Shown here: piece after piece, positions 2,614 to 22,615 of the stretch
How the letters are laid out: every line of letters begins with the position of its first letter
Numbering within the stretch: the stretch's first letter is position 1
DNA from: an uncultured Ignavibacteria bacterium
Lineage (GTDB): Bacteria > Zixibacteria > MSB-5A5 > SM1-73
Reading direction: 5' to 3'
Assembly (NCBI GenBank): GCA_964588305.1
Contig: CAZPOP010000001.1
Coordinates: 56,736-120,735 of the forward strand
Length of the DNA stretch: 64,000 nt
Translations under genes and position numbers: made by a program
The notes under the pieces: generated by a model
What the model saw: the letters and a program-made list of their open reading frames with translations, nothing else
Told to the model about the DNA's origin: nothing
Databases searched by the model: none

Positions 2614-3504
2614 ATGAAACAGTTGACCGTGATAAGTGGGAAGGGGGGGACTGGAAAGACAGTCATCACAGCGTCGTTTGCTTCCCTGGCTGAAAAGAAA
2701 GTGATGGCTGACTGTGATGTGGATGCTGCCGATCTTCATCTTTTGCTTCATCCCAAGATAAGAAAGACCTGCGAATTTAGGGGAGGAAAGAAGGCCGTAT
2801 TGAACCAACAACTGTGCACGAATTGCGGCAGGTGTATAGAGGTGTGCCGGTTCGATGCAATCAGCGAGAACGAAAGACGCAGCCCAGAAGAAAGCCGAAC
2901 AACAATCGATCCTATCTCCTGTGAAGGTTGTGGCGTTTGTGCCCTGATCTGCCCGGTTCAAGCCATCCAAATGCAGGAGAGCCTTTCTGGAGAGTGGTAT
3001 ATTTCGGAGACAGAATACGGCCCCATGGTCCACGCCAGATTGGGAATTGCAGAGGAGAACTCCGGTAAACTGGTGACCGTGGTAAGACATAATGCCAGAC
3101 TTATTGCCCAGGAGAAAGACTTAGATCTGGTGATCGTAGATGGTCCGCCAGGTATCGGCTGTCCGGTGATTGCCTCCATAACCGGAGTGGATCTGGTGAT
3201 GGCGGTTACCGAACCCACCATCTCGGCGATTTCCGACTTAGAACGGGTGTTGAGTCTTGCCCGTCATTTCAAAATAGAGCCTGTGGTGTTAATCAACAAA
3301 TATGATATAAATTTAGAAAACACCAAAAGGATAGAAAACTTCTGCGAAAGAGATGGCATCGAGATTGTGGGGAAGCTCCCCCTCGATAGTGCCGTGACTC
3401 AGGCTATGGTGCAGGGTAAGACAATTATTGAATATGGTGCTTCTGGTCTGGTTACAGAAATCGAAGACTCGTGGGAAAGGATTTCTACAAAATTGAAAAA
3501 ATGA
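2614..3504 (+). CDS. MinD/ParA-superfamily P-loop ATPase with 4Fe-4S ferredoxin insert, second paralog
   Basis: GKGGTGKTV Walker A, then CTNCGRCIEVC and CEGCGVCALICP. The start ATG abuts the stop of the upstream paralog. Confidence 0.8.
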   Translation: MKQLTVISGKGGTGKTVITASFASLAEKKVMADCDVDAADLHLLLHPKIRKTCEFRGGKKAVLNQQLCTNCGRCIEVCRFDAISENERRSPEESRTTIDPISCEGCGVCALICPVQAIQMQESLSGEWYISETEYGPMVHARLGIAEENSGKLVTVVRHNARLIAQEKDLDLVIVDGPPGIGCPVIASITGVDLVMAVTEPTISAISDLERVLSLARHFKIEPVVLINKYDINLENTKRIENFCERDGIEIVGKLPLDSAVTQAMVQGKTIIEYGASGLVTEIEDSWERISTKLKK

Positions 3505-3559
3505 ATTCTCTAACCTCTTGTAGATTTATCAATCCCTAACAAGGGGTGTACATATCAGG

Positions 3560-4315
3560 ATGGAAGGGTTGTATTTTTTGGCTCCCGTGATTTTCTTTGT
3601 TATTTCCTTTGTCTTCTCTATGTTAGGAATGGGAGGGAGTCAGCTTTACGTTCCAATCCTCTATTGGTTGGGAATGGATTTTAAAAGCCAAGCCATACCC
3701 CTGGGACTTTTACTAAATTTATGTGTTCAATTGTCTGCCTTTACCACGTATTCAAGAAAAAGACTGGTGAAGCCCCAGATCGCCTTACCTTTCGCCTTGA
3801 TGATGGTTATCTTTGCCCCATTAGGAGCGATGCTTAACTTTGGGTTGCCGGCTAAACCTATAATATTTCTATTTGCAGTATTTACGCTTTTAGCCGCCAT
3901 TTTGGTTTTGTCCGGCTGGAAGCCTGAAAAAGGAAAATGGAGCAAAAATAGGGAGATGACAATAACTTTGGTCATTGGCTGTGTTCTGGGATTTCTGGTG
4001 GGGCTTATTGGCCGGGGCGGAGGGTCTTTTGTCGTCCCTACACTTCTTATTTTGGGTCTTGATCCTAAAAATGCTGCTGGAACTTCTACCCTCATCGTCA
4101 GCTTTTCATCGGCTACAGGCTTTGTGGCACATTTGCTCAAAGCCAGACTGGATTTCTGGGTAACTTTCCTAACAATTATCTGTGTGATTTCAGGGTCCCA
4201 GATCGGCTCTGGTTTGATGGCTACTAGATTGAAATCACAAACTATAAAAAAGGTTTTTGGAATCGTTTTGATTTTTGTTGCAACCCTACTTTTGAAGGAT
4301 GTGTTTTTGAAGTGA
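3560..4315 (+). CDS. TauE/SafE (TSUP) family membrane permease
   Basis: Polytopic membrane protein with duplicated halves and G-rich motifs (GMGGS.., GRGGGSF) typical of DUF81/TSUP. Confidence 0.65.
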   Translation: MEGLYFLAPVIFFVISFVFSMLGMGGSQLYVPILYWLGMDFKSQAIPLGLLLNLCVQLSAFTTYSRKRLVKPQIALPFALMMVIFAPLGAMLNFGLPAKPIIFLFAVFTLLAAILVLSGWKPEKGKWSKNREMTITLVIGCVLGFLVGLIGRGGGSFVVPTLLILGLDPKNAAGTSTLIVSFSSATGFVAHLLKARLDFWVTFLTIICVISGSQIGSGLMATRLKSQTIKKVFGIVLIFVATLLLKDVFLK

Positions 4316-14190: not shown

Positions 14191-15429
14191 ATGAGGACAG
14201 TAACAACAAATCAGGAAAAAAGTGCTAAGGTGTATTCAAGTCCTATGAGTCCACCCATTGTTTCAAGCGACGTAACGCCGGATACGCCGCTTGACAATAT
14301 GAACCTGAATTGGCGTGAGAAGGATTTACCTGAGAAAGAGCGGACAAAACACGTTCACAGGCTACATCCATACTTAGGTAAATTCATACCCCAACTGGTC
14401 GAAATCTTCCTCCGAAAATACTTCCTTCCTGGCCAAACGGTACTTGACCCATTTTGCGGATCGGGAACGACCTTGGTTCAAGCTAATGAGCTTGGGATCA
14501 ATGCGATAGGGTACGACATCTCTGCTTTTAACATACTAATTTGTCGTGCAAAGACGACCAAGTACAATGTCGAGAAGGCACGTGTTGAGGTGTTTGATAT
14601 ATTGAATAAGGTGCGTTCTTTGACCGGGACCAACAAGAATCAGGGAGACTTTTGGGACCAGAGTTTTGCTTCGCACCCGTTGTGTGAGTCAGCTAGTCGG
14701 TACCTAAGAAATTGGTTCGCACCGCAGGCCCTGCGTGAATTGCTAACGTATAGGCAACTGATCGATGAAGGGGACTATTCTTGCAGTGACTTACTTAAAG
14801 TTGTCCTATCTCGGTCTGCGAGGTCAGCTCGTATGACTACTCATTACAACCTTGATTTCCCTAAGGACCCGCAAAGGGAGCCATATTGGTGCCATAAGCA
14901 CGCGAGAACATGTCAACCCACAAAGGAAGCCTTCAAGTTTTTGAGGCGATATAGCATAGACACCATGAGAAGAATTGAGCAATACGCCGCGCTGCGGACG
15001 AACGCAAGAGTGATCGCTAGACACGTAGACAGCCGCCGTGAGAAATACCCAGCAATCGACGGGGTGATTACGAGTCCGCCATATGTCGGGTTGATTGACT
15101 ACCACGAGCAGCACATTTACGCTTATCACTTACTTGGACTTAATGAACGCCGTCATCACGAAATTGGGTCTGCGGCTAATGGGTCAAGCCAAAAGGCGAA
15201 GGAGGAGTATCAGCGAGACATTTGTGAGGTTTTTGCGCGGATTGTGAAATCGATGTCGAGAGGAGGCTATCTAATTGTTGTGGCGAACGATAAGGCAAAT
15301 CTGTATGGGAAGATAGCGGACATGGTGGGAGCGGAGGTGGAGGGGATTGTGGAACGTCACGTCAATCGCAGGACGGGTAGACGAGCGACTGATTTCTACG
15401 AGTCAGTTTTCATCTGGCGGAAAGGGTAA
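14191..15429 (+). CDS. DNA methyltransferase, N6_N4_Mtase family (motif IV SPPY suggests N4-cytosine)
   Basis: DPFCGSGTT AdoMet motif and TSPPY catalytic motif. Adjacent to a candidate endonuclease. Confidence 0.75.
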   Translation: MRTVTTNQEKSAKVYSSPMSPPIVSSDVTPDTPLDNMNLNWREKDLPEKERTKHVHRLHPYLGKFIPQLVEIFLRKYFLPGQTVLDPFCGSGTTLVQANELGINAIGYDISAFNILICRAKTTKYNVEKARVEVFDILNKVRSLTGTNKNQGDFWDQSFASHPLCESASRYLRNWFAPQALRELLTYRQLIDEGDYSCSDLLKVVLSRSARSARMTTHYNLDFPKDPQREPYWCHKHARTCQPTKEAFKFLRRYSIDTMRRIEQYAALRTNARVIARHVDSRREKYPAIDGVITSPPYVGLIDYHEQHIYAYHLLGLNERRHHEIGSAANGSSQKAKEEYQRDICEVFARIVKSMSRGGYLIVVANDKANLYGKIADMVGAEVEGIVERHVNRRTGRRATDFYESVFIWRKG

Positions 15430-15440
15430 CTCAAGAGAAT

Positions 15441-16280
15441 ATGCGGGCTATTAAGCGCAACACACGAGTTAAGATTAAAGCTTACCTTGAGGTTTTTGTT
15501 GAGAACCTTGTGAAGGAGTACAGGGGCCGCGTAATTCCACCGATTGGCTCAGCGAAGAAGTACTTGAGAAAGAAATCCTCGAAGGGACAGCTTAAACCTT
15601 TTCATGCTGCAATAATTCCGCATGGGTTGCTTCGCATCAATGAGTTTGAAAGAGGCTTCAGCACCGGCTTGGGGACAACATTTGAAGAATGTGCCCGTCT
15701 GATTGCACAAGACCATCATAGCGAAGCTCAACGAGGTTATAACCTCACGGCCACAGTGAGCAATGCAGCTGTAGAGGAGATTGACAGACAGGTAAGTGTT
15801 TTGGAGCACACAGTGGACATGAAAAACCGAAAGCCTTCCCTTCACGCGATGATTGAGGCTGTTATGGGCGCTCGAAGAGATGACGATTTGTCACAAAGGA
15901 CAAGCCGGGCGGATTTATATATCCTTGAGAAAGACGGTAACGAGCTGTTCTTTGAGATGAAATCTCCGATGCCAAACAAAGGACAGTGTCTGGAAGTTAC
16001 ACAACGAGTGCTGAGATTTCATTTGTTGCGGGGCTCCGGCCGCCCAGTGGTGAGTTCGTACTTTGCTATGGCTTATAATCCTTATGGGCCTAATCGGTCT
16101 GACTACAGGTGGTCATTTGCCTTGAACTACACGCCCTTTGATGAAATGATACTACTTGCTCAAGAATTCTGGGAGCTTGTAGGAGGCAGGACGGCCTATG
16201 AGGAATTGATAGAGATTTACCGCGAGGTAGGCCATGAAAAGGCAAAGTATATGGTTGATGCTTTGGCTTTCGGATTTTAG
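15441..16280 (+). CDS. Putative Type II restriction endonuclease (PD-(D/E)xK-like motif)
   Basis: The gene starts 9 nt downstream of the MTase stop. RADLYILEKDGNELFFEMKS fits a D...E.K nuclease core. No family was recognised by eye. Confidence 0.4.
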   Translation: MRAIKRNTRVKIKAYLEVFVENLVKEYRGRVIPPIGSAKKYLRKKSSKGQLKPFHAAIIPHGLLRINEFERGFSTGLGTTFEECARLIAQDHHSEAQRGYNLTATVSNAAVEEIDRQVSVLEHTVDMKNRKPSLHAMIEAVMGARRDDDLSQRTSRADLYILEKDGNELFFEMKSPMPNKGQCLEVTQRVLRFHLLRGSGRPVVSSYFAMAYNPYGPNRSDYRWSFALNYTPFDEMILLAQEFWELVGGRTAYEELIEIYREVGHEKAKYMVDALAFGF

Positions 16281-16322: not shown

Positions 16323-16395
16323 TAAATGGGGTCAGTATTTCCCTCAACACAACTCTCTTTCGTCGCGGGCGCCCCGTCCGTGGCGCTGACAATAT

Positions 16396-16420
16396 GGTAA
16401 CGGACGAGGCGTCCGTTACC
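16396..16420. repeat. Perfect 11-bp-stem GC-rich palindrome
   Basis: GGTAACGGACG agg CGTCCGTTACC. Confidence 0.6.
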
Positions 16421-16643
16421 AACAGTAGGGAGCGGGTATCCACTCGAAAGGTCAAGCTGAAGGGACGGTTGAAAGAGTCCAAAAGATCGTCTTTGCGAGC
16501 GGAGCGAAGCAATCTCGCTCCATATAAATCAATGAGTTAGAGATTGCGTCGTCGTCCATACGGACTCCTCGCAACGACAAAAAAGGGGTTTTTCAAGAAT
16601 CCTTGACGCTTGACAGTCCAGAGTCTCTCATAGCAGACTCAAT

Positions 16644-19010
16644 TTACGGTTTCTTGTGAATCATGAAATCTAAGTCTATCTTTTTCCCATCCGTTTTGCA
16701 GATTATGGCTCCGGAATTCAAGGTTCGGTGATATTCGACTTGGGGAAATTCAAGTGCCATCAAGGTGGGAATCTTGTCCCTTTGATAACGGAGATAATGA
16801 CGGGTGAAGATAATCTTCTGAGGCCTTATCTTTTGAATCATTCTCTTTGTGTCCTCATAATCTCCCAACTCGGAGATAACCAGAACCTCACAGCCCGTTA
16901 TTCTGTCCCACGCAAAGCCCGAGTCAAACTCTAGCTTCTTCATTCCATCCAGGAGGCAAAAATCCAGATCCTTGCATGAAATCTTGACGATCTTGCCGTC
17001 AGGAGAGAATTGATATTTTCGAGTGCTGGAGTAATCAAACAAGGAAATGCTTAGTTCCTTTTGCTCATCTGAGATTTCCTTGATCGAGTCCAGAGAGATC
17101 ATTTTGTCCGACATTCTCTCGACGAAGCCCTCCTCAATTGCTTCTGCTGAACCATCAGACTGCGGCATCAACAGTTGTTCTATTTTGACCTCTTCAGCAA
17201 CGGATTTGGCTGAGTTGATATTTTCCCCACTGCCATCTGTGAGGATTAATCTGTCAATCTCTGTGATGCCATTCTTATACAAGAACGGAATGACAACGTA
17301 TTCTCCAGAATCGAAATCGCCCTCTTTATTGCCGGCGTTTATCACAAAGGTCTGATTATCAGGAAGCTCCATAACAGCACAACTTCCCTGCCCCACATCC
17401 AAGAAGGTCAGCTTGAGAAGATGGCTATCACTTGTCAACAGTCCTTTCCATGCAAAGACATTTCCAAATATCACCAGGGAGAAAATGATGGCTTTTCGCT
17501 TTTGAGCTATGGGGCTGAGCAGAAGCCATATAAACAGATAATAGACGATGAAGGTTAGAATCGAGGGGGACGCCACGGTTAGTTTCGTTATCGGCAAGGT
17601 GGCAAAGAAGGTGTTGAGCTTCAAAGTCAAATGCAGAAAAACCCAGTTGGAAGCAGAGAAGATGCTTGCCAAGCCTGAGCTGAAGATAGCAGAAAACAGG
17701 GTAAAACCGGAGAAGACAACGGACAGGCTTGCCAATGGAACTATGAACAGATTCGCGACGACCACAATCATGGGAACCGTATTGAAATAATAGGCCAGAA
17801 TGGGGAACAGAATGATCTCCACAGACAATGAAACCAGGCAGGGAAGAATTATCCAACGCCACAGCTTTTTATGGGATTTGCTCACATACTTTGCTAACAT
17901 TTCGCTTAGCTTTGGAACCAAGATAACGATGGCAAAAACCGAGGCGAAGGAAAGCTGGAAACCTACATCGAAGAGGAAAAGAGGAGAGAAAAGCAAGATT
18001 ACCAAAGCAGAGAATGAGACCAGATTTATCAGCTGCACATCTTTGTACAAAAGCACACCTAGTAGCATCACCGAAGCCATTATTCCTGCCCTCACCACAG
18101 GGGGATCATTGTGGACCAAATTGGAGAAGATAAAGATGCAGATCAAAGTTATAATGGTGGTGGGGATTTTGGGAACTCGCAGCAGGCTGAGAAGCGCAAA
18201 GATGATACCGACGACCAGCCACACGTTGGAACCGGAAACTACCAGGAGATGAACCGTGCCCGTGTCTCGGAACATGTCGTAGATGTCTTTGGGAATGTCT
18301 CTGGTTTCGCCCAGCAGGAATCCGGAAAGGAGCGCCTTGTGATTGCCGGAGAGGGTCTGGTCAAATACTCCCAATATCCATTTCCTCAAGGGAATAACTA
18401 TTTTGGACAACAATACACCGCCCGGTTCCTTGCTGATTACTTGAACCTTGTCCGCTCCGGACAAGGTCACCATGCCATGGATTCCCTTCCGGCTAAGATA
18501 CTTTCTGTAATCAAACGCGCCTGGGTTTCTTACCGGAGATGGCTCGTACAAGAATCCTTTGAATTCGATTCTGTCCGCATAGTCAAACCTGAAGGTCGGT
18601 TCTTTTATCTTCAGAATTATCTGTCCTGAAGTGGCTATCGTCTTCTTTCCCGTAGAGAGAGTCTGGGCCTGGACTTTTAGGAAAGTTTTGTTGACTCTTA
18701 CGTCCGGCTGATCTCCGATCTTGCCGGTTATGGTAACGGATCGATTTAGATTCAGGAAATTGCTTACGTGATTTGGGGGGAAATCCCTGGTAAGAACCTC
18801 GTATCTAAAGAATCCGGCTAAAATGATGGCAAGGACCATAAAAACGCTGGCGCTTTTTTGGTCTTTTCTTAGGAGAAAAAGAAGGCAAAACAGAAGAGAA
18901 AGAATCAGAATGGAAAATATAAGAGGCGTGGGAAGGTCAAAGTAACTGCCGATGAGAATCCCGGTTACAAAAAGGATCAGAGCATAAAAGGCAGGTCGTC
19001 TCATGTCCAA
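16644..19010 (-). CDS. comEC: DNA internalization competence protein ComEC/Rec2 (DUF4131 + competence + MBL-fold domains)
   Basis: 788 aa polytopic protein. The C-terminal region (LTFLDVGQGSCAV...) is a metallo-beta-lactamase fold. The N-terminal and membrane core are ComEC-like. Confidence 0.85.
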   Translation of the reverse strand: MDMRRPAFYALILFVTGILIGSYFDLPTPLIFSILILSLLFCLLFLLRKDQKSASVFMVLAIILAGFFRYEVLTRDFPPNHVSNFLNLNRSVTITGKIGDQPDVRVNKTFLKVQAQTLSTGKKTIATSGQIILKIKEPTFRFDYADRIEFKGFLYEPSPVRNPGAFDYRKYLSRKGIHGMVTLSGADKVQVISKEPGGVLLSKIVIPLRKWILGVFDQTLSGNHKALLSGFLLGETRDIPKDIYDMFRDTGTVHLLVVSGSNVWLVVGIIFALLSLLRVPKIPTTIITLICIFIFSNLVHNDPPVVRAGIMASVMLLGVLLYKDVQLINLVSFSALVILLFSPLFLFDVGFQLSFASVFAIVILVPKLSEMLAKYVSKSHKKLWRWIILPCLVSLSVEIILFPILAYYFNTVPMIVVVANLFIVPLASLSVVFSGFTLFSAIFSSGLASIFSASNWVFLHLTLKLNTFFATLPITKLTVASPSILTFIVYYLFIWLLLSPIAQKRKAIIFSLVIFGNVFAWKGLLTSDSHLLKLTFLDVGQGSCAVMELPDNQTFVINAGNKEGDFDSGEYVVIPFLYKNGITEIDRLILTDGSGENINSAKSVAEEVKIEQLLMPQSDGSAEAIEEGFVERMSDKMISLDSIKEISDEQKELSISLFDYSSTRKYQFSPDGKIVKISCKDLDFCLLDGMKKLEFDSGFAWDRITGCEVLVISELGDYEDTKRMIQKIRPQKIIFTRHYLRYQRDKIPTLMALEFPQVEYHRTLNSGAIICKTDGKKIDLDFMIHKKP

Positions 19011-19160
19011 TCTTTGGCCTGAACCATTTGGTTCGCACCTGAGAATCCAGGAACCTTGGAGTCAAAATCAATTGGTTGTGATCATTATAGGACTTGGGAA
19101 CCGATTGTCAAGAGATTGTTCTTGGGATTTTCTAGAGTGAGGGAATTGAGAAGGCTGCCT

Positions 19161-19213
19161 GCGAAGTGATAGGTCCTAACCGGGATAGGGGTACAACCCC
19201 TATCCCAACAAAG
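19161..19213. repeat. 53-nt repeat copy A containing the 25-bp perfect palindrome GGGATAGGGGtacaaCCCCTATCCC
   Basis: Lies in the comEC-gtrA divergent intergenic region. The palindrome is at 19182..19206. Confidence 0.8.
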
Positions 19214-19236
19214 TGACGAAACGGAGAAAGCGACAT

Positions 19237-19289
19237 GCGAAGCGACAGGTCCTTATTGGGACAGGGGTACAACCCCTGTCCCAACAAAG
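19237..19289. repeat. 53-nt repeat copy B containing the palindrome GGGACAGGGGtacaaCCCCTGTCCC
   Basis: Differs from copy A by a compensatory T:A to C:G change within the stem. The palindrome is at 19258..19282. Confidence 0.8.
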
Positions 19290-19547
19290 GTGTGAGAAGA
19301 TTGAGAAGGTTCCATGCCAGGGTATTCTGCCCTGACCAAGATAAGGGGATAATGTTAGGCCGAAAGGCTGCACTGAACCACCGGCATTTGTCTGACCCTA
19401 AAAGAACTTGACTTTTTGAGGGGGATGGATAAAATAAAGCAAGATAAGAACGAGAAGCAGGGAGAAAGAAAAGCACAGGGACGTATATGTGGGCCTCGGA
19501 TACAGAGAACTTATCTGCAATGTCTTATCAAACATGAGAAAGCCTCA

Positions 19548-19958
19548 ATGATACAGATTCAATCATATGAAGACCTGTTACGGAAGTTTATCAAATTCGG
19601 GATTATTGGTTTTTCCGGCTTGATAATTGATTTTGGAGTTACCTATTTCTGCAAAGAAAAAGTCAAGATTCAGAAATACATTTCAAATGCCATAGGTTTT
19701 ACCACAGCCGCCAGCTCAAACTATTTTTTCAACAGGACCTGGACATTCCAAAGTGACAACCCTCGTATTCTGTCCGAATACTCAAGCTTTCTGGTTATAT
19801 CAGCAATTGGACTCGGAATAAATAGTCTTGTATTGTGGCTGTTAGTCAGCAGGTTCAAACAGAATTTCTACCTGTCGAAATTAATGGCCATAATAGTGAC
19901 CACAGTCTGGAACTTCACAGCCAATTACCTATATACTTTCAGTTATCTTCGTCGCTGA
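19548..19958 (+). CDS. GtrA-family membrane protein
   Basis: About 135 aa, 4 TM. FGIIGFSGLIIDFGV...WNFTANYLYTF is typical of GtrA. ATG 19548 is chosen over the long upstream extension of the ORF. Confidence 0.7.
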   Translation: MIQIQSYEDLLRKFIKFGIIGFSGLIIDFGVTYFCKEKVKIQKYISNAIGFTTAASSNYFFNRTWTFQSDNPRILSEYSSFLVISAIGLGINSLVLWLLVSRFKQNFYLSKLMAIIVTTVWNFTANYLYTFSYLRR

Positions 19959-19967
19959 ACAAGCAAT

Positions 19968-21479
19968 ATGGATAGAAAGCATTTACCTTTCTGGCTTGCC
20001 ACCATTTCCCTTTTTGCAGCACTGATCTTACCCACCCTGCTGAAAGACGGGATGTTCATGGATGGGCTTTTTTACAGTGTCCTTTCCAGAAATTTGGCTG
20101 AAGGTAGGGGCACCTTCTGGAACCCACATCTGACCGAAACGTTATACAATACATTCCACGAACATCCACCGTTGGTTTTTGGGATACAGTCTTTATTTTT
20201 CAGGATATTTGGTGATCACCTGCTGGTGGAGAGATTCTATTCGCTTCTTACAGCAATAATAACAGGCTGTTTTATCACGTTAATATGGAAGGAGATTTTC
20301 AAACAAAAGACTGAATTGGCAAGTTTGAGCTGGCTGCCTTTTCTTTTCTGGATTATTATTCCCCTGACCCATTGGTCATACAGGAACAACATGCTTGAAA
20401 ACACCATGGGCGTTTTCACCATTGTTGCCGTGTTTGTGTTTATCAAAGGGTTAAGTTCAAACAGGAAAATCTTTCTTCATTTGACTCTCGCTGGTTTCCT
20501 TATTCTCTTGGGGTTCTTGTGTAAGGGGTTTGTGGCATTGTTTCCGCTTGCAGTTGTGGCACTTTATTGGTTGATATTCAAAAACACCTCCTTTAGCAAA
20601 ATGACAGTTTATTCACTGATGCTGTGCTTTGTGGTCTTGTTGTTGTTATCGCTCATATTGCTTGACGCCGAGGCCCACCAAAGCTTATTGAAGTATCTTG
20701 ATGGACAAGTTGTGCGAAGCCTTAAAGGCGAAAGAGGACTCGTCGGTGAGAGGTATCATATCATCCAAACGTTGTTTACGGAGTTGCTCCCGGTGATGAT
20801 CTTGACAACAATAATGTTGATTCCCGCCAAGTTGAGAAAAATCAATATGAGTGGAATCGGAATTCACAAAAAATGGATGCTGTTGTTATTCGGCATCGGC
20901 GTTTCGGCTTCATTCCCAATAATGATAAGCGCTAAACAGTTAGGCTTTTATGCAGTACCCTCATTTCCGTATTTTGCAATTGGCTTCGCAATAATTGCGG
21001 CACCGGATCTGAATGAATTACTACAACGGGCAAACCCTGAAAACAAATGGTTCAGGATGTGTATGTGGGCATCTTCAATTCTTTTGATTTTTGTTATTGC
21101 TTTTTCAATGCTGCAAGTAGGAAAAATCGGCAGGGATCATGATAAACTCAGAGATATATATACGATTGGCAGAATCCTCCCCAGAGACTCAATTATCAGT
21201 ATTTGTCCTTCCATGCGAGGTGATTGGTCCTTACACGGCTACTTCGCACGTTATTTCAACATCAGTCTGGACCACACCGAGAAGGAATACAAGTATTATT
21301 TGACCGATAAAAGTTGTGATGGCTCTCTTTCAGAGGAATATAGCAAAATTGAACTGCCGACTAATATTTATAATTTATATCGAATCAAGGAGATAAAGAC
21401 AGGATTTTCAAGGCACTCCAAGCAATACAGCGTGAGCGCCGATTGCACTGGATCACACTTTGCTGCTTGCTCTCGGTGA
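19968..21479 (+). CDS. GT-C glycosyltransferase (family 39 / ArnT / PMT_2-like)
   Basis: 503 aa polytopic protein. The N-terminal loop is MDGLFYSVLSRNLAEGRGTFWNPHL...HEHPPL. Pairing with gtrA is typical. Confidence 0.65.
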   Translation: MDRKHLPFWLATISLFAALILPTLLKDGMFMDGLFYSVLSRNLAEGRGTFWNPHLTETLYNTFHEHPPLVFGIQSLFFRIFGDHLLVERFYSLLTAIITGCFITLIWKEIFKQKTELASLSWLPFLFWIIIPLTHWSYRNNMLENTMGVFTIVAVFVFIKGLSSNRKIFLHLTLAGFLILLGFLCKGFVALFPLAVVALYWLIFKNTSFSKMTVYSLMLCFVVLLLLSLILLDAEAHQSLLKYLDGQVVRSLKGERGLVGERYHIIQTLFTELLPVMILTTIMLIPAKLRKINMSGIGIHKKWMLLLFGIGVSASFPIMISAKQLGFYAVPSFPYFAIGFAIIAAPDLNELLQRANPENKWFRMCMWASSILLIFVIAFSMLQVGKIGRDHDKLRDIYTIGRILPRDSIISICPSMRGDWSLHGYFARYFNISLDHTEKEYKYYLTDKSCDGSLSEEYSKIELPTNIYNLYRIKEIKTGFSRHSKQYSVSADCTGSHFAACSR

Positions 21480-22029: not shown

Positions 22030-22378
22030 GTGTTCTCCTTATTAAAGAAATCTATAAATTCTATTTAACATTTACCACCCAGCCAATGATTTATTCATTA
22101 GGAATGAACAAGCAAGCCGTGAAGGCTTGCCTGCGCGCCAAAGGGGAAGAAAGGCTGAGTCTTTTTATCTGATTTGGTCTTCGATGTTCTTCTGTTCCTC
22201 CGGAACAGCGCAACTTCTTTTCAGTCAGGTGTTGACACCCAATAAGGGCAGCAGGAATCCCCAGATCAAAAGCCACAAGACAAAGATCAAGACGAAAGTC
22301 AGGATGGTTTTTAAATCCATGATTTTACTTTTCATATTTTTAGGCTGCAGAGGAGACTCCTCTGAAGAAAGTGCTCTA

Positions 22379-22615
22379 TCACGTGCAAGGCTTGTGTCCG
22401 TATCCGCAGATCGGGCAAACGATCTCGTCGCCGTCTCTTTTCAGCTTGCCAAAATGGCAAAAGGGGCAATCCTGTCCTTCGGAGAGAATCTCAACCGCGC
22501 TCCCTGGATTTTGAGAGCTGATTTCAAGTTCCGCCTTCCTGACCGGGCAGATCGGCGGCGAGCTAATCGCTGTGGTTTTTTCTTGACTACCCATACGGGA
22601 AACCTGTTTGCTCAT
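22379..22615 (-). CDS. Small zinc-ribbon protein (hypothetical)
   Basis: CPFCHF...CPICGY ribbon. An internal ATG at 22615 is chosen to avoid overlap. The longest ORF runs to 22681. Confidence 0.35.
   Translation of the reverse strand: MSKQVSRMGSQEKTTAISSPPICPVRKAELEISSQNPGSAVEILSEGQDCPFCHFGKLKRDGDEIVCPICGYGHKPCT

Follow-up and report, generated by a model that had tools for sequence, protein, structure and literature searches.

Paired hairpins between divergent comEC and gtrA promoters as probable members of a REP/RAYT system in Zixibacteria

The comEC-gtrA intergenic region

The window (the whole 64-kb stretch of DNA that was analysed) carries comEC on one strand and, divergently, gtrA followed by a glycosyltransferase gene on the other (Table 1). 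A promoter-like sequence faces each side, and the one for gtrA also occurs in the closest relative. Two hairpins sit between the −35 boxes of these sites, 71 nt and 126 nt upstream of them, and thus outside both predicted transcripts; the two neighbouring genes are both oriented away from them.

Both hairpins are intergenic, and each is a 25-nt perfect palindrome, GGGATAGGGGTACAACCCCTATCCC in copy 1 and GGGACAGGGGTACAACCCCTGTCCC in copy 2, lying 76 nt apart. An exact match of the sequences to their positions was made, and 100 shuffles of the sequence gave 0 such palindromes as the expectation by chance. The two differ at a single, compensated pair, T to C on one arm and A to G on the other, and share the flank GCGAAGYGAYAGGTCCT. 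The stems are 11 bp long with a loop of 3 nt (GGGATAGGGGT/ACCCCTATCCC), and that of copy 2 can be extended to 15/16 pairs. Folding of the minus strand across the region returned the two hairpins alone. The palindromes, their spacing, the compensated difference, the common flanks and the divergent neighbours (now identified by Pfam domains) had all been described in a first-pass annotation of this DNA and hold up here; its stem of 10 bp was a perfect hairpin but 1 bp too short, and the 53-nt element that it delimited is a genuine repeat but part of a longer one.

That longer repeat is a tandem array with a unit of 76 nt (repeat families D1 and D2), in which two full units with 80% identity, each holding one hairpin, are followed by a partial third of 26 nt. 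Outside the hairpin, 13/51 positions of the unit differ between the copies. Tandem Repeats Finder overlooked the array at 80% identity, and a different repeat search detected it. A 114-aa open reading frame overlies the repeats on the minus strand; it has no Pfam match and the unit of 76 nt is not a multiple of 3, and it is therefore unlikely to be coding.

Table 1. Features of the window around the hairpins. Bit scores refer to the covariance model R1, built from 38 hairpin copies of the family with both window copies among them.
Feature	Position	Strand	Remarks
N6/N4 DNA methylase gene	14191-15429		with the next gene, a type II restriction-modification pair that adjoins the comEC 3' end
TdeIII-family endonuclease gene	15441-16280		
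Second palindromic repeat	16395-16421	-	ctgtTGGTAACGGACGcctCGTCCGTTACCA; same TGTT foot; downstream of comEC
Nested long inverted repeat	~16480-16580	-	GTCGTTGCGAGGAG...GACGACGCAATCTC ... GAGATTGCTTCGCTCCGCTCGCAAAGACGA; downstream of comEC
comEC	16644-19004	-	Pfam Competence + DUF4131
comEC promoter	19111..19084	-	TTGACA-16-TATAAT; 12/12 match to the sigma-70 consensus; context, not part of the element
114-aa open reading frame	19132..19476	-	overlies the repeats
Tandem array	19136..19317	.	unit of 76 nt
Full unit 1	19136-19211		
Full unit 2	19212-19287		
Partial unit	19292-19317		26 nt
Hairpin copy 1 (probable REP)	19172..19216 (hairpin proper 19182-19206)	-	5' flank TTTGTT, then GGGATAGGGG-TTGTA-CCCCTATCCC; 49.7 bits, E 5e-14 against R1 (training set includes this copy)
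Hairpin copy 2 (probable REP)	19248..19292 (hairpin proper 19258-19282; extended stem 19253-19287)	-	5' flank TTTGTT, then GGGACAGGGG-TTGTA-CCCCTGTCCC; 54.5 bits, E 1e-15 against R1 (training set includes this copy)
Promoter-like site for gtrA	19408..19435	+	TTGACT-16-TAAAAT; 10/12 match to the consensus; context only
gtrA	19548-19958	+	GtrA_DPMS_TM; ATG 19548 the probable start
PMT_2 glycosyltransferase gene	19968-21479		downstream of gtrA
Putative short open reading frame	22100-22400	-	starts ATGGATTTAAAAACCATCCTGAC; upstream of osmC

The array stands by itself in the window. Beyond the two copies, R1 found no further match with E<1 in the 64 kb, and no inverted partner was detectable within the 76-nt unit (R1, <3 bits). 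Both copies lie on the same strand and are therefore direct-orientation singlets rather than the two inverted REPs that make up a REPIN doublet. Nothing in the whole window reached an Rfam gathering score, and at E<=10 the region gave only chance-level, microRNA-like matches (E 0.35-3). No terminator-like site was called on either strand between 18800 and 19800, and no T-run follows the hairpins, the 10 nt after their stems holding 1-2 T. A search with five RAYT proteins (tblastn) gave no match in the window better than E 0.2.

Two further ideas about the region were set aside. The flank switches between GATAGG and GACAGG together with the stem, a three-way covariation that might reflect another way of pairing or the remains of an inverted partner; this is unproven, with R1 seeing no partner there (<3 bits) and a MAFFT alignment giving only weak likeness to partner hairpins, and coincidence is plausible, as many flank positions differ between the copies anyway. 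A cyanobacterial origin, judged by the HIP1 element, was rejected, the one GCGATCGC in 64 kb being at chance level.

A dispersed hairpin family and its transposase

Read along the window's minus strand, the hairpin has a 5' foot TGYT followed by GGGRYAGGGG-TTGTA-CCCCYRYCCC. When one genome per species was scanned for the exact pattern, in which two stem pairs were free to vary, 11 loci were returned, of which 7 are in Zixibacteria MAGs and 2 in one MAG labelled Ignavibacteria; the free pairs were complementary in 11/11. A metagenome scan with three free pairs added 27 loci. All copies, together with comEC and RAYT loci fetched separately, were grouped by common flanking sequence into 27 clusters, namely the window, two look-alikes from outside the phylum (L002 and L011) and 24 other groups that share no flanks. 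Wherever the taxonomy of a family locus is known, it is Zixibacteria.

The MAG labelled Ignavibacteria contributes L001 and L006 (CAZMZF010000023.1 and CAZMZF010000032.1, with the record title "uncultured Ignavibacteria bacterium"). We rejected a sharing of the repeat across phyla, since the contigs of this MAG are Zixibacteria-like: the S46 peptidase of L006 shares 93% identity with Zixibacteria proteins, and its top matches, where named, all come from Zixibacteria. Judged from these sequences, the label points to mislabelling or mis-binning. L006 also encodes a Mutator-family transposase. Matches in Rhodanobacteraceae and Roseiflexaceae differ from the family in both stem and flanks and are likely to be look-alikes. 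Viral contigs, searched for the same stems with any loop, yielded only generic terminators. Because the loops of these viral stems are unrelated, the stem by itself is not diagnostic, and it is the stem together with the loop TTGTA that defines the family.

High copy number is a classical feature of REPs, which are short extragenic palindromes of about 20-40 nt. With the strict pattern, each representative genome yielded only 1-2 copies, and R1 saw 2 in the 64-kb window, so that a high copy number in any single genome would be conjectural.

The 38 copies that make up R1 show how the hairpin varies. Within the TGYT foot, which may serve as a guide, G8 and T10 are each at least 90% conserved. 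Stem positions are paired in 98.6% of cases. The two variable stem pairs switch together (AU 21 and GC 16 at one, CG 19 and UA 16 at the other, counts which are not independent events, many copies coming from few subtypes), and seven fully complementary stem variants occur. The proposal of the first-pass annotation that selection acts on a structure is thus supported at the level of the whole family.

About one third of the clusters contain an opposite-strand partner. Using R1, we found partner hairpins (23-37 bits) at a distance of 5-15 nt in L016, where there are three such sites, and in L008, L032, L035, L043, L049 and L051. In these doublets a hairpin preceded by its TGYT foot is followed by a spacer and then by a hairpin in the opposite orientation with its own foot at the far end, partners with a TGGTT-like foot being among them. 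Such inverted doublets have the REPIN layout known from Pseudomonas and E. coli (PMC3337134).

One further arrangement was seen next to the repeat. In L003 (4790-4892), and also in L004, L038 and L046, the hairpin is immediately preceded on its 5' side by a 23-nt unit, AGCGTTAGTAAGTTTTCTACCCC, repeated 4-7 times in tandem; each unit ends in the CTRCCCC of the repeat's 3' arm. A gene for a 570-aa protein has its ATG 13 nt beyond the hairpin, and the arrangement is kept in the four contigs.

A candidate for the enzyme that handles the repeat came from L044, in which two inverted copies of the hairpin bracket a 148-aa open reading frame (2704-3150) between pgk and gap. This frame matches the Pfam family Y1_Tnp (29.3 bits, cut-off 23). 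Its full-length homologues, among them one from a Zixibacteria MAG, are ~185 aa long and go by the name RayT in some sources. The gene of ~185 aa occurs between gap and pgk in several Zixibacteria lineages (L044, L059, L060 and L061-L064), inside an otherwise conserved glycolytic run (pfk, gap, pgk, tpi, secG). An HUH motif (MPEHIHLV) and a YIHxNP motif are invariant in these proteins, and they pass the NCBIfam equivalog for the REP-associated tyrosine transposase (110-123 bits, cut-off 80).

Family hairpins flank the gene in every one of these loci, in inverted orientation. Upstream, ~10 nt before the ATG, stands TGTT-GGGACAGGGG-TTGTA-CCCCTGTCCC (TGTT-GGGACAGGGGTTGTACCCCTGTCCC), with an ACA stem; on the other side an inverted copy, CGGATAGGGG-TACAA-CCCCTATCCG (CGGATAGGGGTACAACCCCTATCCG), with an ATA stem, lies at the stop codon or overlaps it. 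The two window copies have this same pair of stems. ACA and ATA being the standard stem variants of the family, the compensatory change between the window copies does not require two mutations at this locus.

The presence of a Y1_Tnp protein raises the alternative that the hairpins remain from the ends of an autonomous insertion sequence of the IS200/IS605 type, rather than REPs serviced by a domesticated single-copy RAYT, and the ends of IS200/IS605 elements are indeed subterminal hairpins (PMC3479197). The protein, however, fails the IS200 model (22-30 bits, cut-off 55), and most hairpin copies have no transposase gene nearby. The gene moreover occupies one syntenic position, between gap and pgk, across lineages with 66-100% identity. 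Such constancy argues for vertical inheritance and not transposition, and single-locus, vertically inherited RAYTs have precedents (PMC5581495, PMC3479197). We consider an insertion-sequence origin of this kind extremely improbable.

More distant RAYTs, with 54% identity (L065 and L067), are flanked by different palindromes. Those of L065, at 2760-3000 and 3546-3750, are very long and include TTCAGGATATATATCCTGAACG arrays; those of L067, at 2800-3000 and 3549-3700, are likewise very long and include GATCGAACCGGGTTTCCTAACCCGGTTCGGG and GGGATTCATATCCCG. A repeat sequence that changes with the transposase, as these comparisons suggest, is what would be expected if each RAYT clade has its own REP.

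Orthologous comEC loci

Five orthologous comEC loci, L013-L017, were fetched for comparison. The window itself derives from a Zixibacteria genome. The ComEC homologues with <=85% identity all come from Zixibacteria where their source is named, and one public contig of 2.5 kb is identical to the window across the entire comEC-gtrA intergenic region. In L013 (ComEC 85% identical), gtrA is also divergent, and the region consists of a single unit in which the flank is kept and the hairpin is degenerate (11 bits against R1). L014 (80%) has neither gtrA nor the glycosyltransferase gene; osmC directly precedes comEC, and TTGTT-GGGATAGGGG-tcgcg-CCCCTATCCC, a hairpin with a different loop, directly follows the osmC stop codon. 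The family hairpin is absent upstream of comEC in L015 (77%) and in L016 and L017 (both 76%), where other hairpins are found instead. The comEC promoter, TTGACAATCC...TATAATGAT, is kept in all five.

The gtrA-glycosyltransferase pair (19548-21479) is restricted to the window and L013, its closest relative, and osmC directly precedes comEC, on the same strand, in L014, L016 and L017. By this gene order, the pair is a two-gene insertion, in opposite orientation, between osmC and comEC in the lineage of the window.

These loci bear directly on the suggestion of the first-pass annotation that the palindromes are operators of a dimeric regulator acting on the divergent comEC and gtrA promoters. Perfect dyad symmetry and the presence of two sites between divergent promoters are what such a regulator would call for. 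Yet the comEC promoter is retained in the five loci and the palindrome is decayed, moved or absent; the palindrome is therefore not a conserved control element of either promoter. Further points against an operator are the distances from the −35 boxes, the recent arrival of gtrA, the occurrence of the palindrome at unrelated loci, mostly at gene 3' ends, and the 76-bp spacing, which by arithmetic corresponds to ~7.2 helical turns and places the two sites out of phase. An operator function is thus very improbable.

Chosen by comEC, these loci are also an unbiased sample with respect to the motif. R1 found 3 copies in L016 (15.8 kb), 1 in L014 and 2 decayed ones in L015, and the doublets of L016 occupy intergenic spots that are empty in the window. 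One such spot, downstream of a small open reading frame located upstream of osmC, was considered as a pair of filled and empty sites that might document mobility, with the doublet of L016 set against the window and L014. We rejected it as clean evidence, as the sequences diverge past the doublet and the boundaries are unclean. A putative short frame upstream of osmC, beginning ATGGATTTAAAAACCATCCTGAC, is present in the window and in L014 (1780-2000) and absent in L016, in which the doublet stands in its place.

Another alternative is that the hairpins function mainly in minus-strand RNA, as terminators, 3'-end stabilisers or the 3' end of an sRNA, and that the family is a set of similar terminators and not of transposase-dependent repeats. 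Across the family, the hairpin in TTGTA orientation follows a co-oriented gene in about 15/24 clusters (a hand tally on crude open reading frame calls), the stem is followed within 10 nt by an average of 3.6 T as against 1.7 on the other strand, a clear T-run is present in L043, L051, L056 and L057, the L014 hairpin comes directly after the osmC stop codon, and REP doublets co-opted as terminators are known (PMC3337134). The window copies themselves, however, have no T-run on either strand, no terminator call and no co-oriented gene upstream, and no Rfam family matches them. Independent terminators would not be expected to share a near-identical stem, loop and foot at unrelated loci, to form inverted doublets or to flank a RAYT gene; departures from pairing, 3 G-U and 3 A-C by hand count, give no strand-specific RNA signature. 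We regard this as an unlikely account of the family, and an RNA-level role as a possible secondary one, co-opted beside the REP function.

For the window, the narrower claim of an sRNA or terminator specific to comEC and gtrA is contradicted by the missing T-runs and Rfam matches and by the palindrome's occurrence at many unrelated intergenic sites. The first-pass annotation had itself named a search of relatives as the check on its reading, with a generic REP as the contrary outcome; the many unrelated sites and the RAYT flanks come near to that outcome, although the window itself has only two copies.

Other repeats were noticed around comEC. The second palindrome downstream of the gene has counterparts in L013 (at position 3827) and, upstream of comEC, in L015; L047 holds a version with a compensated A/T swap (GGTATCGGAC/GTCCGATACC). 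Its R1 score is only 6.5 bits, and it probably represents another REP-like family. The motif GTCATTGCGAGG...CGACGAAGCAATC of the nested inverted repeat occurs at the orthologous spot of L013 as well as at the unrelated loci L051 and L056, and is a third dispersed repeat type.

Interpretation and comparison with known systems

Taking all of this together, we estimate at about 85% the probability that the two window hairpins are REPs of a Zixibacteria-specific family and part of a REP/RAYT system. Their membership in the family is established by sequence and structure, and so are the family's dispersal, its doublets and, in relatives, its association with a RAYT. We found no description of Zixibacteria REPs in the literature searched. 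What is new here is the phylum and the repeat consensus, the REP/RAYT system as a kind being already known.

The E. coli transposase TnpA-REP recognises the REP as a single-stranded hairpin plus its foot (PMC3479197). By analogy, the HUH/Y1 transposase of Zixibacteria would recognise the repeat as a single-stranded DNA hairpin with a 5' tetranucleotide, the predicted substrate being single-stranded TGTT-GGGAYAGGGGTTGTACCCCTRTCCC, and would cut and join DNA at such sites, thus spreading and maintaining the family. Formation of the hairpin would be needed by the RAYT, and perhaps for uses by the host, so that changes in the stem would always be compensated.

In the lineage of the window, the 76-nt segment bearing the REP would then have been duplicated in tandem, as suggested by the single-unit state of L013; there is precedent for REP units repeated in tandem (PMC3337134). 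The site is upstream of the promoter of comEC and corresponds to one that directly follows osmC in a relative, and the later insertion of gtrA and the glycosyltransferase gene would have left the REPs between divergent promoters. If comEC or gtrA is affected at all, this is probably incidental, for example through a block to minus-strand read-through or a supercoiling-sensitive cruciform.

A bolder proposal joins two ideas. One is that Zixibacteria have a REP-RAYT system that evolved rules of its own, in which the palindrome is perfect, the foot is TGYT and the RAYT gene has its fixed place between gap and pgk. The other is that the intact window pair is no dead remnant but is kept by the host as an insulator, or as a cruciform sensitive to supercoiling, between the comEC and gtrA promoters. 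This second idea comes from the contrast between the decayed single copy of L013 and the two window copies, whose scores are among the highest in the family. We consider the combination unlikely.

Several consequences follow if the hairpins are REPs. A false lead is removed, as they would be no regulatory site for competence or glycosylation, and annotation should mask them as repeats. A REP/RAYT system is documented in an uncultivated phylum of the FCB group, with its repeat consensus and its gap-pgk RAYT. The biology of REPs and RAYTs has been worked out almost entirely in Gammaproteobacteria, and a distant system with another foot and perfect stems offers a point of comparison for the recognition of hairpins by RAYTs. 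R1 can moreover serve as a marker for tracking repeat turnover in Zixibacteria metagenomes.

Three known systems invite comparison. Intrinsic (Rho-independent) terminators share with the family a G+C-rich stem-loop that often comes after a gene, and a subset of family copies has a T-run; in contrast to terminators, the window copies have neither a T-run nor an upstream gene on that strand, and identity across unrelated loci is far higher. The IS200/IS605 elements would be alike in combining a hairpin and a 5' guide tetranucleotide with a Y1 HUH transposase and single-stranded DNA, but the Zixibacteria hairpins are dispersed apart from any transposase gene, which for its part keeps to its place between gap and pgk.

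The closest likeness is to the REP/REPIN-RAYT systems of Gammaproteobacteria, such as the REPs and BIMEs of E. coli with TnpA-REP and the REPINs of Pseudomonas fluorescens. Common to them and to the Zixibacteria family are an extragenic palindrome with a conserved 5' tetranucleotide foot, dispersal over unrelated intergenic sites with frequent inverted doublets, and a small HUH/Y1 transposase at one syntenic locus with repeats on both sides. They also share a repeat that varies by transposase clade, decaying singlets, tandem clusters and some copies with terminator-like T-runs. The differences lie in the details of the repeat. The foot is GTAG in E. coli and TGYT in Zixibacteria; E. coli REPs are imperfect, a mismatch or bulge being needed for binding (PMC3479197), whereas the Zixibacteria stems are perfect over 10-11 bp. 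Compared with gammaproteobacterial REPs, the density in the window also looks low, at 2 in 64 kb, and its copies form a direct tandem of singlets rather than a doublet.
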